Counted from the stretch's first letter, positions 720-20,753 are shown. The stretch is 24,000 nt of DNA from Candidatus Saccharimonadota bacterium (GCA_043741255.1 JAYUAP010000146.1:1-24000), one strand, 5' to 3'. Notes: generated by a model from the sequence alone, not told the origin. Numbers and translations are program-made.

Positions 720-751
720 AAAAACCCGAGCTATATTAGTTCGGGTTTTTT
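720..751. terminator. bidirectional intrinsic terminator between convergent genes
   Basis: Stem AACCCGA 723-729 pairs with TCGGGTT 741-747 around an 11-nt loop. A T run (746-751) follows on the plus strand and an A run (720-724) precedes it, which gives a U run on the minus strand. The homing endonuclease stop codon (731-733) lies in the loop. Confidence 0.7.
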
Positions 752-1483
752 GTATTCATACGCAGTATTATTTTTACTAGCTCCTCGCATTTTACGCTTC
801 ATAGTTCCGTAGCAAAAGCCTTTTAAGTCGCAAAGGTATTTAAGGTTTTTAAACTCTTCCCCTGTCACCATATCTATTACGGTCTTTCCTGTTTTAGCGC
901 TTTCGAGTCTAGCTTTTAAACGAATTGCTTTTGCATCTTCCGTAGGCTTTACACCTAGTTTAGCTTTAGACATTTTCGCTTTTGTTTCAGCACTCCTCGG
1001 TGGTCGCGCAAAAGCTTTTTGGCGCATAAGTTCTATAGATTCAGTTTTGTGATTTCTACCTAAAAGAGTTTCACTTACTTTTGCTTTGTGAGAGCCAGAT
1101 AGACTCACTCCTGTTCGACTTAAATTGAAAAGTGTTAAATCTGGGCGACTACGCCCCGAATTGCTTTTACTTATTTTACGCTTAGTCTCTTCTGAAACTC
1201 TCTTATTAAGGCCGCCAGAGGATAGATTTAAACCGCGCTCGTTGTTGAAAGTTCCATAGAACTCTATCCAATACTCCTCGCGACTATTTAAACCCTCCCA
1301 ATCGCATTCCTCAATAACTTCGAAAACATGTGCCGAAAATCCATATTTGACTAAACTAGCGTGCAATTTCTGTTGTTTGTGACAATGGTTATTAACGTAC
1401 ATTTTGCGTCTTTTTTCTATATCGATACTTTGTCCGATATAGATTCGTCCTGTCGGACTCGTAATCTTATAAATTCCTATCAT
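731..1483 (-). CDS. GIY-YIG family homing endonuclease with NUMOD3-like DNA-binding repeats (free-standing)
   Basis: From the ATG at 1483 the protein reads MIGIYKITSPTGRIYIGQS (GIY...YIG), followed by EYWIE and a conserved N. Three NUMOD3-like repeats follow (SEETKRKISKSNSG, SGSHKAKVSETLLG, SAETKAKMSKAKLG). The track start at 1519 would read through the upstream -7 box and the terminator U run, so I use the start at 1483. Confidence 0.85.
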   Translation of the reverse strand: MIGIYKITSPTGRIYIGQSIDIEKRRKMYVNNHCHKQQKLHASLVKYGFSAHVFEVIEECDWEGLNSREEYWIEFYGTFNNERGLNLSSGGLNKRVSEETKRKISKSNSGRSRPDLTLFNLSRTGVSLSGSHKAKVSETLLGRNHKTESIELMRQKAFARPPRSAETKAKMSKAKLGVKPTEDAKAIRLKARLESAKTGKTVIDMVTGEEFKNLKYLCDLKGFCYGTMKRKMRGASKNNTAYEYKKPELI

Positions 1484-1487
1484 GCGC

Positions 1488-1495
1488 CAAATATA
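1488..1495 (-). promoter_or_regulatory. -7 box TATATTTG located 4 nt upstream of the homing endonuclease ATG
   Basis: The minus strand reads UUUUUGTATATTTGGCGCATG. This matches the Bacteroidota TAnnTTTG consensus. The same spacing is seen at 5632-5639 and 7167-7174. Confidence 0.45.
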
Positions 1496-1496
1496 C

Positions 1497-1538
1497 AAAA
1501 AAAAAATCCCTTTAATCAATTAAGACTAAAGGGATTTT
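1497..1538 (-). terminator. intrinsic terminator after the major capsid gene
   Basis: A 12-bp stem pairs AAAATCCCTTTA 1503-1514 with TAAAGGGATTTT 1527-1538 around a 12-nt loop. On the minus strand it is followed by a long U run (A run 1497-1506 on the plus strand). Confidence 0.8.
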
Positions 1539-17773: not shown

Positions 17774-19741
17774 TTAATCTTTTTTATAATAGGGTGTTGT
17801 AAATCCTGCGGCGGTAAGGTGCAAACCCTTAGCCCACCTAACGGGCTCGCTTAATATTCGGCATAGCTCCGATACGACAAACTCGGTCGATTTATTCTCA
17901 ATGTCACATGCGACTTCGTCGTGTACGTGCATTACAATATCAAAGCCCTTATCATCTGCTCGTCGCATACCGTCCGCTAGTATATCTCTCGCAATGGCTT
18001 GAATTACATTTTCCGAAATTTTTCCGCCGTAGGTATCCGTCCAGCCCCATTGTTTAGTCTCTTGATTCATACCTTGGTACTTTATACTTTCGCCGCCCCA
18101 TTTGTTTTTTGATAGTACTGGGCTTTGGTACACAAGTTTACGCCCCGAAGGCAATTCGATAGTTAGGCATTTATATTCGTACCTAAATGTAATTCCTTTC
18201 AGTTTTGAAACTACGGGCTTTCGAGTCTTAAGGGCTCTTAGTGCGCAATCCTCAAATTCGTACCACATTTTAACTATCTGAGGGGAGGCTTTACGCCATC
18301 TATCTACGATGTCTTTCATCATGTCCTCCGTCCATCCCATACGCTCCCCGCCCATGGTCTTAAGTGCTCCGACTGAACCGCCAAACCCTAGAGCCAATTC
18401 TGCTATTTTCCCCTTGTCTCGCTGCTCGCCTACTACTGAGTCAATTGGTACCTTGTACATCATAGCCGCAGAGGCTTCATAAATTTTCCCGTCTCCTGCG
18501 AAAATGTCTAGTCTCCATTGTTCGCCAGATAGCCATGCTGTTATTCTTGCCTCTATAGCTGAATAATCGGCAATTGCAAAGACATTCCCCTCTGAGGCGA
18601 CTAGCGCGGTACGGATCAACTGCGAAAGGACGTTCGGAATATTATCAAACATGATATTAAGCATTTCGTAGTCATTCGCCTTGACTAGATCACGGGCACA
18701 ATCCAGTAGTTTCATTTTGTTACGGGGCAAGTTTTGCAGCTGTACGGCTCTACCAGCCCAACGACCTGTGCGGTTTGCGCCGTAGAAATATAATAGCCCG
18801 TGAGCCGTAGCGTCTGACATGGCGTAATTAACCATTGCGTTATACTTCTTTGTTGAGGTGCTAGATCCGAGCTGTCTAAGTTTTAAAACCTCTACCGCAG
18901 CCCCGCTTTTATGCTCTTGTATTAAAGCACTAACGTTATCCTTTGCAAGTGATTTTACTTCTTGTTGCAGTGCGGAACTCAGCCACTTTGAGAGCTGGGC
19001 GGGACTATTCGGGTTTACGAGTCCTGTTAAGTCTTTAAGCTTGTCGATAACTCCAAGTTTGAAGCGATTATCTATCTCGATAGCGTTTTGAGCCATTTCT
19101 ACGTCGATATTGACCCCTCTATCGTTTATCTTTTGGTCTAAGATGTAATTAAGTCTTTCAGTCTCAGGGATTTCAAAATATTTCAATCGTTCGAGTAATT
19201 CCATTTCGGCGGCAACATCCTGCGCGCAATAATCCTTATATCTTTCCCACTTCTCGGGATCATGTCTCCGGAGGTTTCTAAATCTCTCTCCGTTCGTTTT
19301 AGTTGGCTTTACGAGGCAAGAGAAATAACGAATTAAGGATTTACCCTCTGCGCTTTTACCCTTATCCCCCATCTGTAGTGCTTTTGTTGCACCGTCTAAC
19401 GACATCGGAAGTCCACAATATCCTGCTTTTACGGCTGAACAGTGCCACTGCTCTGCGGGTATGTCGTAGCCAATAGCCTTAAAGGCGTTGCGCTCAAAGT
19501 TTGCATTATGGGCGTGCTTTTCGACTGTTGGATCTTGCAGTAATTTTAAAAACAATTTAGGTATTTCGCCGCCTTGGGCTAGATCGATAGTTCTTACCCC
19601 CCCTGTTGTTGTGTCGTTTTTAATACAGTAGCACAAAATCAGTATTTCAAAATCTGGACTCTCAAAGTATTTATAAGACCCGCAACTCGTTATGTCAACA
19701 CTCGAAAAAGTCTCGACGTCAATGTGTAATTCTACCGCCAT
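17774..19741 (-). CDS. family A DNA polymerase with N-terminal 3'-5' exonuclease domain
   Basis: From the ATG at 19741 (MAVELHIDVETFS): Exo I DVE, Exo II HNANFE, Exo III YCAQDV, pol motif A DYSAIEARI, motif B RDKGKIAELALGFGG, motif C HVHDEV. The track start at 19834 would translate through a tRNA-like element. Confidence 0.9.
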   Translation of the reverse strand: MAVELHIDVETFSSVDITSCGSYKYFESPDFEILILCYCIKNDTTTGGVRTIDLAQGGEIPKLFLKLLQDPTVEKHAHNANFERNAFKAIGYDIPAEQWHCSAVKAGYCGLPMSLDGATKALQMGDKGKSAEGKSLIRYFSCLVKPTKTNGERFRNLRRHDPEKWERYKDYCAQDVAAEMELLERLKYFEIPETERLNYILDQKINDRGVNIDVEMAQNAIEIDNRFKLGVIDKLKDLTGLVNPNSPAQLSKWLSSALQQEVKSLAKDNVSALIQEHKSGAAVEVLKLRQLGSSTSTKKYNAMVNYAMSDATAHGLLYFYGANRTGRWAGRAVQLQNLPRNKMKLLDCARDLVKANDYEMLNIMFDNIPNVLSQLIRTALVASEGNVFAIADYSAIEARITAWLSGEQWRLDIFAGDGKIYEASAAMMYKVPIDSVVGEQRDKGKIAELALGFGGSVGALKTMGGERMGWTEDMMKDIVDRWRKASPQIVKMWYEFEDCALRALKTRKPVVSKLKGITFRYEYKCLTIELPSGRKLVYQSPVLSKNKWGGESIKYQGMNQETKQWGWTDTYGGKISENVIQAIARDILADGMRRADDKGFDIVMHVHDEVACDIENKSTEFVVSELCRILSEPVRWAKGLHLTAAGFTTPYYKKD

Positions 19742-19758: not shown

Positions 19759-19817
19759 GTGGGCGTACGGGATTCGAACCCATTCCTGCTGCCGTGCTCC
19801 CATTACACCACCGCCCT
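19759..19817 (-). ncRNA. tRNA-like element 1 (acceptor, D and T arms present; anticodon arm absent)
   Basis: The minus strand reads A GGGCGG UG GUGU AAUGGGA GCAC GGCAGCAGGA AUGGG UUCGAAU CCCGU ACGCCCA C. It has a canonical T arm and a 4-bp D stem with a GG-containing loop. The acceptor has 5 G-C pairs. Only 10 nt stand where about 22 nt (anticodon arm plus variable loop) are expected. Confidence 0.5.
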
Positions 19818-19985
19818 TTGCCTGATCGACTCATAGGCGAGAGTGTTTAAGTTTAACTGTCTTAAACAACGACATTTCTATTGCCTTGATCCAATGCGCA
19901 TGTCGAGGCGTATATGCGGCTACTTTATTTAAACTCGTGAACTTCGAGCATCGCTGTACCTGTTCCGTATTACTGAGAAGGGTTG

Positions 19986-20011
19986 CAAAAATTAAGAGAA
20001 ATTAATCTCTT
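19986..20011 (-). terminator. weak terminator-like hairpin after tRNA-like element 2
   Basis: The minus strand reads AAGAGA UUAAUU UCUCUU AAUUUUUG. The stem pairs 19994-19999 with 20006-20011 and is A/U-rich (6 bp). Confidence 0.35.
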
Positions 20012-20013
20012 TG

Positions 20014-20095
20014 TGGAAAAATTAGGATTCAAACCTAAATTTCTGGTATATTTTATTCCGCAGTTCGAGCGCTTTATCCGTTAAACCATTTTCCC
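20014..20095 (-). ncRNA. tRNA-like element 2 (82 nt; 7-bp acceptor stem with G3:U70 and A73, D and T arms, no canonical anticodon arm)
   Basis: The minus strand reads GGGAAAA UG GUUU AACGGAUA AAGC G CUCGAACUGCGGAAUAAAAUAUACCAGAAAU UUAGG UUUGAAU CCUAA UUUUUCC A. I tried every register of the 31-nt insert and found no 5-bp stem with a 7-nt loop. Confidence 0.5.
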
Positions 20096-20207
20096 GTTTA
20101 GCACACTTTTCTAGAGGTGTGCAAGCGCCATGTTTCTAATGTTCTCTTTATGCAAGACGTTGAGAGGTTTATCGCCTTATTTCTTGCTGCGGCTCATTAG
20201 TTTTAAT

Positions 20208-20753
20208 CTATAAATCGAATTCCTCTTCGTCGAGTTCATCGAAGACATCCTCAACTCTAACATTGGCAACGCCTAGAGGTTCGCCGTCGCTTACTTTTTG
20301 GATAGCCTCCAAGCTGGCTGTAATCCCCTTAGAGTCTTCTCTCCAGTAATAGTAGAATTCAATAGCTACATTTGCTATGCATCCGCTGTATACCTCGTCC
20401 TCGTCTGTAATTAAATTACGTCTCCTATCGACTATTTTAGGTTTTGTGGTTTTGGAGACATTTATGTAAAACCTATTCTCATAAATTTCATCGTCTTTGT
20501 CCTCGTCCCCGTCGTTAAATGAGTTTTTGATCTCTTTTTTAGGACGCTTACCTGCATATTTTTCGGTAATCATTTTTTCTTCTACCTCCTTAATTGCAGC
20601 CTTAATTTTAGCTACGGAAGCTTTGTCCGACTTATCGATTAGAAGTAAACATTTATACTTCGGTTTTTCGTCAGGTCGTTTCGGATCTGTGTAAGGTTTG
20701 AAAACACTTACATAACTTAATAGTGCTCTTACTGTAACTCTGGTCTCTGCCAT
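20208..20753 (-). CDS. single-stranded DNA-binding protein, DUF2815-type (T7 gp2.5-like) with acidic C-terminal tail
   Basis: 181 aa. N-terminus RVTVRALLSYVSVFKP and acidic tail DELDEEEFDL. It is encoded directly after the DUF2800-type nuclease, as in many phage replication modules. Confidence 0.6.
   Translation of the reverse strand: MAETRVTVRALLSYVSVFKPYTDPKRPDEKPKYKCLLLIDKSDKASVAKIKAAIKEVEEKMITEKYAGKRPKKEIKNSFNDGDEDKDDEIYENRFYINVSKTTKPKIVDRRRNLITDEDEVYSGCIANVAIEFYYYWREDSKGITASLEAIQKVSDGEPLGVANVRVEDVFDELDEEEFDL

Follow-up and report, generated by a model that had tools for sequence, protein, structure and literature searches.

The gap between the genes for an ssDNA-binding protein (SSB) and a family A DNA polymerase (PolA) in this stretch of phage DNA holds an 82-nt tRNA-like element (element 2; 20014..20095, minus strand) that has the acceptor stem, D arm, T arm and tertiary core of a tRNA, and 31 nt where the anticodon arm should be. 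Judging from the sequence and from its pattern of change among homologues, we regard it as very probable that element 2 specifies a structurally constrained, non-decoding tRNA-like RNA. On the best reading, it is the relic of a phage tRNA-Ala(UGC) gene that has lost its anticodon arm, and is thus unable to decode. The same reading has it under selection for the acceptor/T-arm helix, the D/T elbow, the L-shaped core and a C74-A-A trailer lacking CCA. It also places element 2 in a family of at least 60 SSB-PolA elements, in a clade of siphophages whose nearest cultured relatives infect Bacteroidota. As to function, the explanation we favor, at just short of an even chance, is that a tRNA-Ala gene was exapted and kept as a substrate of tRNA maturation, acting as a processing module.

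The window (the whole stretch of 24,000 nucleotides that was analysed) has a siphophage layout with all genes on the minus strand. A DUF2800 nuclease gene and the gene for an Enc34-type (DUF2815) SSB (20208..20753, minus strand; Pfam PF10991, E=7.8e-49) are followed by a gap of 465 nt, and then by genes for PolA, a YpsA/SLOG protein and a VapE-type primase-helicase. The later part includes a C5 methylase and an SNF2 helicase, then terminase, portal, protease and capsid genes. The SSB gene is the upstream neighbor of element 2, which begins 112 nt past the SSB stop codon and ends 272 nt ahead of the PolA start. The PolA gene (17774..19741, minus strand) aligns with its relatives from residue 1, and the true start is probably the ATG at 19741. 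A longer ORF, taken from a mechanical list, starts at 19834 and would read through a second tRNA-like element of the same gap (element 1). By PolA, the nearest cultured phage is Croceibacter phage P2559Y (52% identity), followed by Bacillus phage SPO2 (49.8%), and then by Bacteroides fragilis phages and an Elizabethkingia phage. These cultured relatives suggest a host of the Bacteroidota type. A sigma-70 promoter scan found no match, and GC-skew, folding of the whole gap and a terminator scan were uninformative; there was no compositional signal at the site of element 2. The single-strand operon and the missing promoter match suggest that element 2 is co-transcribed with the operon. Elsewhere in the window, a GIY-YIG/NUMOD3 homing-endonuclease-like ORF (731-1519, minus strand) adjoins the major capsid gene.

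Read on the minus (gene) strand from 20095 to 20014, element 2 is GGGAAAA-UG-GUUU-AACGGAUA-AAGC-G-[CUCGAACUGCGGAAUAAAAUAUACCAGAAAU]-UUAGG-UUUGAAU-CCUAA-UUUUUCC-A. The initial annotation had described a 7-bp acceptor stem with G3:U70 and A73, well-formed D and T arms and a U at position 56. A stem-pair check bears out every part of this description and supplies the strand that the annotation had left unstated. The 5′ strand of the acceptor stem, GGGAAAA (RNA positions 1-7; 20089..20095), pairs at 7/7 positions with 20015-20021, including G3:U70; its 3′ strand, UUUUUCC, together with the discriminator A73 (at 20014), occupies 20014..20021. The D arm (GUUU AACGGAUA AAGC; 20071..20086) has a 4-bp stem and carries A14, A15 and G18G19, with U8 at 20088. 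The T arm (UUAGG UUUGAAU CCUAA; 20022..20038) has a 5-bp stem, and U56 where C56 is expected. U56 is the sole deviation in the elbow and core: U8, A14, G18G19, G53:C61, U54, U55, A58 and R15:Y48 are all there, the last (the Levitt pair 15:48) as A:U. Between the D and T arms, the 31-nt middle segment (20039..20069) stands in place of the anticodon arm and variable loop; it includes a UGC remnant, and its last nucleotide is U48. The 3′ trailer CAAAG (20009..20013) contributes C74-A75-A76 and no encoded CCA, fitting both the family consensus and the trailers of bona fide phage tRNA genes. All of these parts lie on the minus strand.

The Rfam tRNA model (RF00005) recovers element 2 at the same coordinates with 40.5 bits (E=1.5e-5 for the 24-kb window). 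Since the gathering score is 29, the tRNA resemblance is well above chance. Beyond RF00005, no Rfam family matches element 2 or element 1. The alanine identity set (G1:C72, G2:C71, G3:U70 and A73) is complete and is kept in the homologues from P2559Y and from two metagenomic contigs, L045 and L036. Charging with alanine, as the initial annotation had it, is therefore plausible. Hairpins flank the element on the same strand. One, GCACAC...GUGUGC (20101..20122), was read from the sequence 5 nt 5′ of the start, and hairpins also precede the elements of P2559Y, L014 and L016. The other, just 3′ of element 2 (19987..20011) and likewise read from the sequence, is a weak AU-rich hairpin, AAGAGA/UCUCUU, followed by a U-run; hairpins are found 3′ of the P2559Y and L036 homologues as well. 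It is possibly a terminator or stabilizer, although a consensus terminator scan did not call it, since it has two GC pairs only.

That a 31-nt insert replaces the anticodon arm held up under each approach used to look for one. When element 2 is aligned to RF00005 by Infernal, the anticodon arm becomes a local-end gap of 23 nt, against the 13 that the model expects. In RNAfold, the middle adopts no stable structure (z = -0.41). Introns were sought by deleting each contiguous block that leaves 1+17+4 or 1+17+5 nt. In no case does a 5-bp anticodon stem around a 7-nt loop result; the best deletion reaches 4/5 pairs and is without U33, and shuffled sequence equals or beats element 2 in about a quarter of the trials. 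The P2559Y and L036 homologues gave the same outcome. The tRNA finders proposed in the initial annotation differed: RF00005 matched, whereas ARAGORN in default mode reported zero tRNAs and zero tmRNAs in the whole window. With thresholds relaxed to 90% and introns allowed, ARAGORN forced the element into a "tRNA-Arg(gcg)" with an 8-nt intron and 2/5 stem mismatches, in a run that made eight further calls in the window, mostly spurious. Rescue of the anticodon arm by an intron or an expanded loop was rejected, given the poor ARAGORN model and a deletion scan no better than shuffles. Also rejected was an antisense "cargo" in the 32-nt stretch made of G26 and the 31-nt middle, where the longest match to window transcripts is 8 nt and the shuffle mode is 9.

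The closest sequence relatives of element 2 are in P2559Y (L007 3357-3443), L045 and L036. All four sequences of this type have GGG.../...UCC-A, including G3:U70, and a UGC triplet. The 3′ part of their inserts can be aligned (AUWAAAAYAU..ACCARAAWU), and after their CACRAAARAGA trailer comes a hairpin. Compared with P2559Y, the 16 stem pairs of element 2 have 4 two-sided and 2 one-sided changes with 0 broken pairs; compared with L036, there are 6 two-sided and 2 one-sided changes, again with 0 broken of 16. The Levitt pair covaries too, being A15:U48 in the window and P2559Y and G15:C48 in L036. The compensatory changes and the covarying Levitt pair, with no pair broken, argue that element 2 is not in neutral decay. 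A tRNA gene merely degenerating, which the initial annotation had taken as the conservative explanation, fits poorly with these 4-6 compensatory changes and with retention of a tRNA-gene 3′ trailer. The register of UGC relative to any possible stem, on the other hand, differs among the homologues, so decoding is not what is conserved. It should be added that the element-2 subfamily comprises three independent lineages only.

The distribution of this subfamily is sporadic, since the closest relatives by SSB (74-79% identity) have a different type of element after the SSB gene, namely a GC-rich AGGGYGU type. One of these GC-rich relatives retains a CUUGCAC loop remnant. A search of IMG/VR with the exact T-arm pattern returned 65 matches, all 65 of them unrelated coding sequence or ordinary tRNAs, and a D-arm pattern search recovered just the three known contigs with element-2-type sequences. 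No closer relatives came from a metagenome scan, and a genome scan gave only distant prophages, mostly without elements. The only exact SSB match is an identical contig. BLAST against GenBank phages left element 2 unmatched, and the P2559Y element carries no annotation there.

The family was delineated in 80 IMG/VR loci picked solely by PolA homology, which are not phylogenetically independent. When a script was set to require a T arm together with a 7-nt acceptor complement and a D stem, 50 loci had such elements on the gene strand in the 900 nt upstream of PolA, 59 elements in all; the other ~1 Mb that it covered gave only 29 matches, all of them weak. Perfect matches (7/7 acceptor and 4/4 D-stem pairs) number 24 upstream of PolA vs. 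2 elsewhere. The Rfam tRNA model at its gathering threshold, applied to 20 loci, gives 7 matches, every one on the gene strand just upstream of PolA, and 5/7 of them have a gap at the anticodon arm. A covariance model (R1) was built from 24 seed elements using acceptor and T-stem pairs only, and its E-values are rough. Run over 590 kb on both strands, R1 has 61 matches at E<=0.1, in 51/80 loci, all on the gene strand and all upstream of PolA. The comparison with related phages suggested in the initial annotation thus places element 2 in a family of tRNA-likes with defective anticodon arms at one and the same junction and with the tRNA fold under selection, which backs the annotation's notion of a non-decoding tRNA mimic. 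The 49.7 bits of element 2 against R1 are by construction, as it is a seed member; its Rfam match is independent. Element 2 shares with the family its gene strand, its location in the gap, the acceptor and T stems, the trailer and a variable middle.

About half of the loci with a match have an element that ends 11-41 nt ahead of the PolA ATG, and the members cluster either there or directly behind the SSB stop codon. Several loci missed by R1 have elements that are visible by eye. Among the missed forms are minimal ones of ~45 nt in L081-L087 (about 2435-2480), which consist of a 6-bp acceptor helix, a GGGG-UUCGAAU-CCCC T arm and a short linker, and fill most of the ~85-nt spacer between SSB stop and PolA start. 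In about a third of the related loci no element was detected, and some of these have a terminator only; the function of the element must therefore be dispensable. Among more distant prophage loci, an R1 match was present in only 2/45. In a few lineages the junction is occupied by apparently canonical tRNAs (Ser-GCU in L042, Met-CAU in L073 and Ser-GGA in L041), which fits an exaptation scenario.

Two members are from cultured phages. In the complete genome of P2559Y, the sole tRNA-like sequence is the one in the SSB-PolA gap, unannotated in RefSeq. Bacteroides phage BF486P2 (OP172667.1; L327 1395-1461), a cultured B. fragilis phage, has a 67-nt member with a UUUGAAU T loop and a CACAAAG trailer, as in element 2, and this element is unannotated in GenBank. 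Many family members are labeled by ARAGORN as "tRNA-???", with 2- or 4-base anticodons, or with the anticodons ata, aat, atg or tat. A full-text literature search, with much of the subscription literature outside its coverage, found such elements nowhere described, and the family of tRNA look-alikes is apparently undescribed so far.

Across the family, what is kept is the tRNA fold and what varies is the middle. The acceptor and T stems show strong covariation. In the R1-fitted alignment, 96.7% of the stem cells are paired and there are 265 double-sided changes, whereas sliding by 1-3 columns lowers pairing to 39-51%; because the alignment was fitted to R1, these counts lean towards structure. 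MAFFT was unable to align the 5′ halves of short members, so the D arm and tertiary features were tested by script. In the 36 elements with a clean D stem, features that are outside the model are retained: U8 in 36/36, A14 in 32/36 and the D-loop GG in 34/36. The Levitt pair 15:48, also outside the model, is G:C or A:U in 22/36; shuffles give 10.3 +/- 2.2, and 0/10,000 reach 22. The nucleotide just 5′ of the T stem therefore still serves as position 48, whatever replaces the anticodon arm, and this retention points to selection for an L-shaped fold. The trailer is similarly uniform, with C74 in 47/58, A or U at 75 in 54/58 and A76 in 51/58. Among 450 ARAGORN-called phage tRNA genes from unrelated contigs (L088-L152 and L207-L326), C74 is present in 90%, A or U at 75 in 87% and CCA in none (0/450). 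Phage tRNA genes thus look to follow a C74/non-C75 rule, which would fit 3′ processing of the RNase Z type.

The segment between the D and T stems, by comparison, ranges from 5 to 115 nt across 60 elements (median 32.5). It has canonical length in 4/60 and is shorter than 22 nt, too short for any anticodon arm, in 18/60. A crude anticodon-arm test was passed by 5/59 family elements; in a control set, made up of phage tRNAs picked with a D-arm pattern, 59/80 complete tRNAs passed it. The identity of pair 3:70 (GC, AU, CG, GU or UA) and of the discriminator also varies across the family. G3:U70 is found in 7/58 members, and G:U is no commoner at 3:70 than at 7:66. Anticodon-loop-expanded tRNA-likes are present in other phage groups as well. 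Four unrelated phage contigs (L246 3685-3778, L279, L292 and L280) have 94-nt tRNA-likes with a normal 5-bp anticodon stem and a 27-nt loop; three of these have a common GCUGU...ACAGC hairpin, and none is beside a PolA or SSB homologue.

Element 1 (19759..19817, minus strand), the other tRNA-like element of the gap, is 59 nt long with its anticodon arm essentially deleted, and its 3′ end is 17 nt ahead of the PolA ATG. It scores 26.6 bits (E=0.013) with the Rfam tRNA model and, as a non-seed sequence, 40.4 bits (E=2.8e-6) with R1. In sequence it is of the GC-rich AGGGYGK...ACRCCC type, which the closest relatives have right after SSB. Upstream of element 1 is a conserved box, GTTGTTTAAGACAGTTAAACTTAAACAC (19843..19870, minus strand), with counterparts TTTGGTTTAAAAnAGTTAAnCTTAGAC in L006, L007, L009-L013, L022, L026 and L331-L333. 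The box precedes the PolA-proximal element, is followed by a small hairpin, and is without a match to the sigma-70 consensus; either version might act as an RNA motif or as a phage promoter. Another conserved block, AACGCACCGCGTAATGGCGACCCACTGTTA..., lies between the two tRNA-like elements of relatives (L009 2240-2300, L010 2270-2310, L013 2265-2300, L006 3780-3810 and L331 2310-2350) and has no Rfam match. The 196-nt spacer between the elements of the window is weakly similar to it. The block could be a tRNA-flanked non-coding RNA released by the same processing.

How might such an element work? For RNase P, RNase Z and the CCA-adding enzyme, recognition depends on the elbow and on the acceptor/T helix, whereas the anticodon arm is dispensable. 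These enzymes read exactly the parts that are retained, so the simplest common function would be that of a tRNA-maturation substrate. Element 2 would be co-transcribed with the replication operon, and then cut by host RNase P at its 5′ end and by RNase Z after A73. The two cuts would part the SSB message from the PolA message and free a tRNA-like RNA of ~82 nt, to which CCA would then be added. As tRNA-type punctuation, the element could uncouple the stability and dosage of the SSB and PolA mRNAs. As to origin, a real tRNA gene at the junction may have become part of operon processing and lost decoding later, whereupon the anticodon arm would be free to decay, shrink or expand. The clustering of members beside the SSB and PolA genes, the spacer-filling minimal forms and the apparently canonical tRNAs at the junction are consistent with such a history. 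The punctuation role is less obvious for element 2 than for element 1, since element 2 is not at an ORF boundary. Other points against a processing role are that G3:U70 and A73 are kept although processing has no need of them, that the distribution of element 2 is sporadic, that about a third of the related loci show no element, and that tRNA-likes with aberrant anticodon arms occur in unrelated phage contexts.

Several known systems have some of these properties. The mascRNA of MALAT1 and the vtRNAs of murine gammaherpesvirus 68 each lie within a longer transcript as a cloverleaf whose acceptor, D and T arms are present and whose anticodon arm is degenerate. This cloverleaf serves as a signal for RNase P and RNase Z cleavage, and the small RNA that is freed receives CCA and does not decode. 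Element 2 has in common with them the cloverleaf without a working anticodon arm and, as proposed here, the cleavage role: an intact acceptor/T/D fold with a non-functional anticodon arm would lie inside a longer transcript. The mascRNA and vtRNAs, however, are eukaryotic nuclear or herpesviral, and have no sequence relationship to element 2. In mitochondrial tRNA punctuation and at the RNase III sites of T7 early mRNA, intercistronic structured RNAs recruit an endonuclease to a polycistronic transcript. The former uses functional tRNAs and the latter RNase III hairpins, whereas element 2 would be a non-decoding tRNA relic at one junction. The C4 antisense RNA of P1/P7 and the stable RNAs C and D of T4 are phage transcripts other than tRNAs whose acceptor features resemble those of a tRNA, and which the tRNA enzymes of the host mature. 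Unlike element 2, they are without the full D/T elbow cloverleaf and are found in other genomic contexts. A canonical phage tRNA-Ala(UGC) resembles element 2 in G3:U70 and A73, the D and T arms, the tertiary core, the UGC (a remnant in element 2) and the C74-A-A trailer, and differs in that element 2 has 31 nt for the anticodon stem-loop, has U56 and is not called by ARAGORN at default. The initial annotation had drawn an analogy with tmRNA, which likewise combines alanine identity (G3:U70, A73) with the lack of an anticodon in its tRNA-like domain. The analogy goes no further. A tmRNA is 260-400 nt long, with a tag reading frame, pseudoknots and no D stem; element 2, at 82 nt, has a normal 4-bp D stem and no tag-coding domain or pseudoknots, and neither ARAGORN nor Rfam finds a tmRNA match, so a tmRNA identity was rejected.

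The retained alanine set would suit a different function, which we think unlikely: host AlaRS would charge the CCA-tailed RNA through G3:U70 and A73, and the RNA would act in trans without decoding. It might, for instance, bind EF-Tu or the ribosome, or serve as a decoy for antiphage toxins directed at tRNA acceptor ends. The full identity set is present in all four element-2-type sequences even though pairs 4-7 have turned over, and G3:U70 is found in the 7/58 family members counted above; the tRNA-gene trailer and L-shaped core are conserved, as expected of an RNA matured like a tRNA, and a hairpin with a U-run lies 3′ of the element. But the identity set is not uniform in the family, where the 3:70 pair and discriminators vary and G:U is not enriched at 3:70, and element 2 is missing from the closest relatives. 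Moreover, no tRNA-related enzyme is encoded in the 24-kb window, and a fixed position beside ORF boundaries points to a role in cis. The broader proposition, that phages encode host-matured, anticodon-less tRNA-like RNAs of which the Ala type is charged by AlaRS and acts in trans beyond being a cleavage signal, we hold to be decidedly doubtful; such RNAs might possibly soak up toxins that target acceptor ends, or modulate EF-Tu or the ribosome. Alternatively, element 2 could be a non-functional pseudogene, a phage tRNA-Ala minus its anticodon arm that is decaying neutrally. The UGC remnant, the U at position 56, the AT-rich and unstructured middle, the absence from closest relatives and the rejection by ARAGORN all agree with this. 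We nevertheless find it quite improbable, as 16/16 stem pairs are intact against P2559Y and L036 despite 4-6 double substitutions, the Levitt pair, U8, A14, GG and trailer signature are kept, and more than 50 lineages have, at this junction, the same kind of damage limited to the anticodon arm, when 59/80 control tRNAs pass the arm test.

A further possibility, a real decoding tRNA whose anticodon arm is odd, with a short intron or an expanded loop (a quadruplet or suppressor tRNA, for instance), is barely credible to us. Besides the Arg(gcg) model of the relaxed ARAGORN run, it can draw on the ARAGORN label "tRNA-?(gcaa)", with an 8-nt loop, for the homologues in P2559Y and L036. The stems so proposed, however, contain mismatches and weak G:U pairs, the deletion scan does no better than with shuffled sequence, the three homologues do not have UGC at the same place with respect to any stem, and in 18/60 members the middle could not accommodate any anticodon arm. 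Finally, the location within a replication module, and a T-arm sequence that phages have in common, might suggest an element acting as DNA: a replication origin, a single-strand initiation signal or a recombination linker between modules. This we consider highly improbable. The G:U pairs can form on the transcribed strand alone, conservation extends to the trailer of a tRNA gene and to tertiary nucleotides specific to tRNAs, and the site lacks a compositional signal.

The processing module thus remains our preferred explanation, and the family has some bearing beyond it. tRNA finders miss or mislabel its elements, which could mislead analyses of codon usage, host prediction and recoding. The family is a natural experiment on what maturation enzymes require of a tRNA: its members keep the acceptor, T arm, elbow and trailer, and the anticodon region is anything from 5 to 115 nt. 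With members in two cultured phages, Croceibacter phage P2559Y and Bacteroides phage BF486P2, the hypothesis is directly testable. If it is true, phages of Bacteroidota-type hosts would have repeatedly turned tRNA genes into RNA-processing modules at the junction of SSB and DNA polymerase, a bacterial-virus counterpart of mascRNA and of mitochondrial tRNA punctuation.
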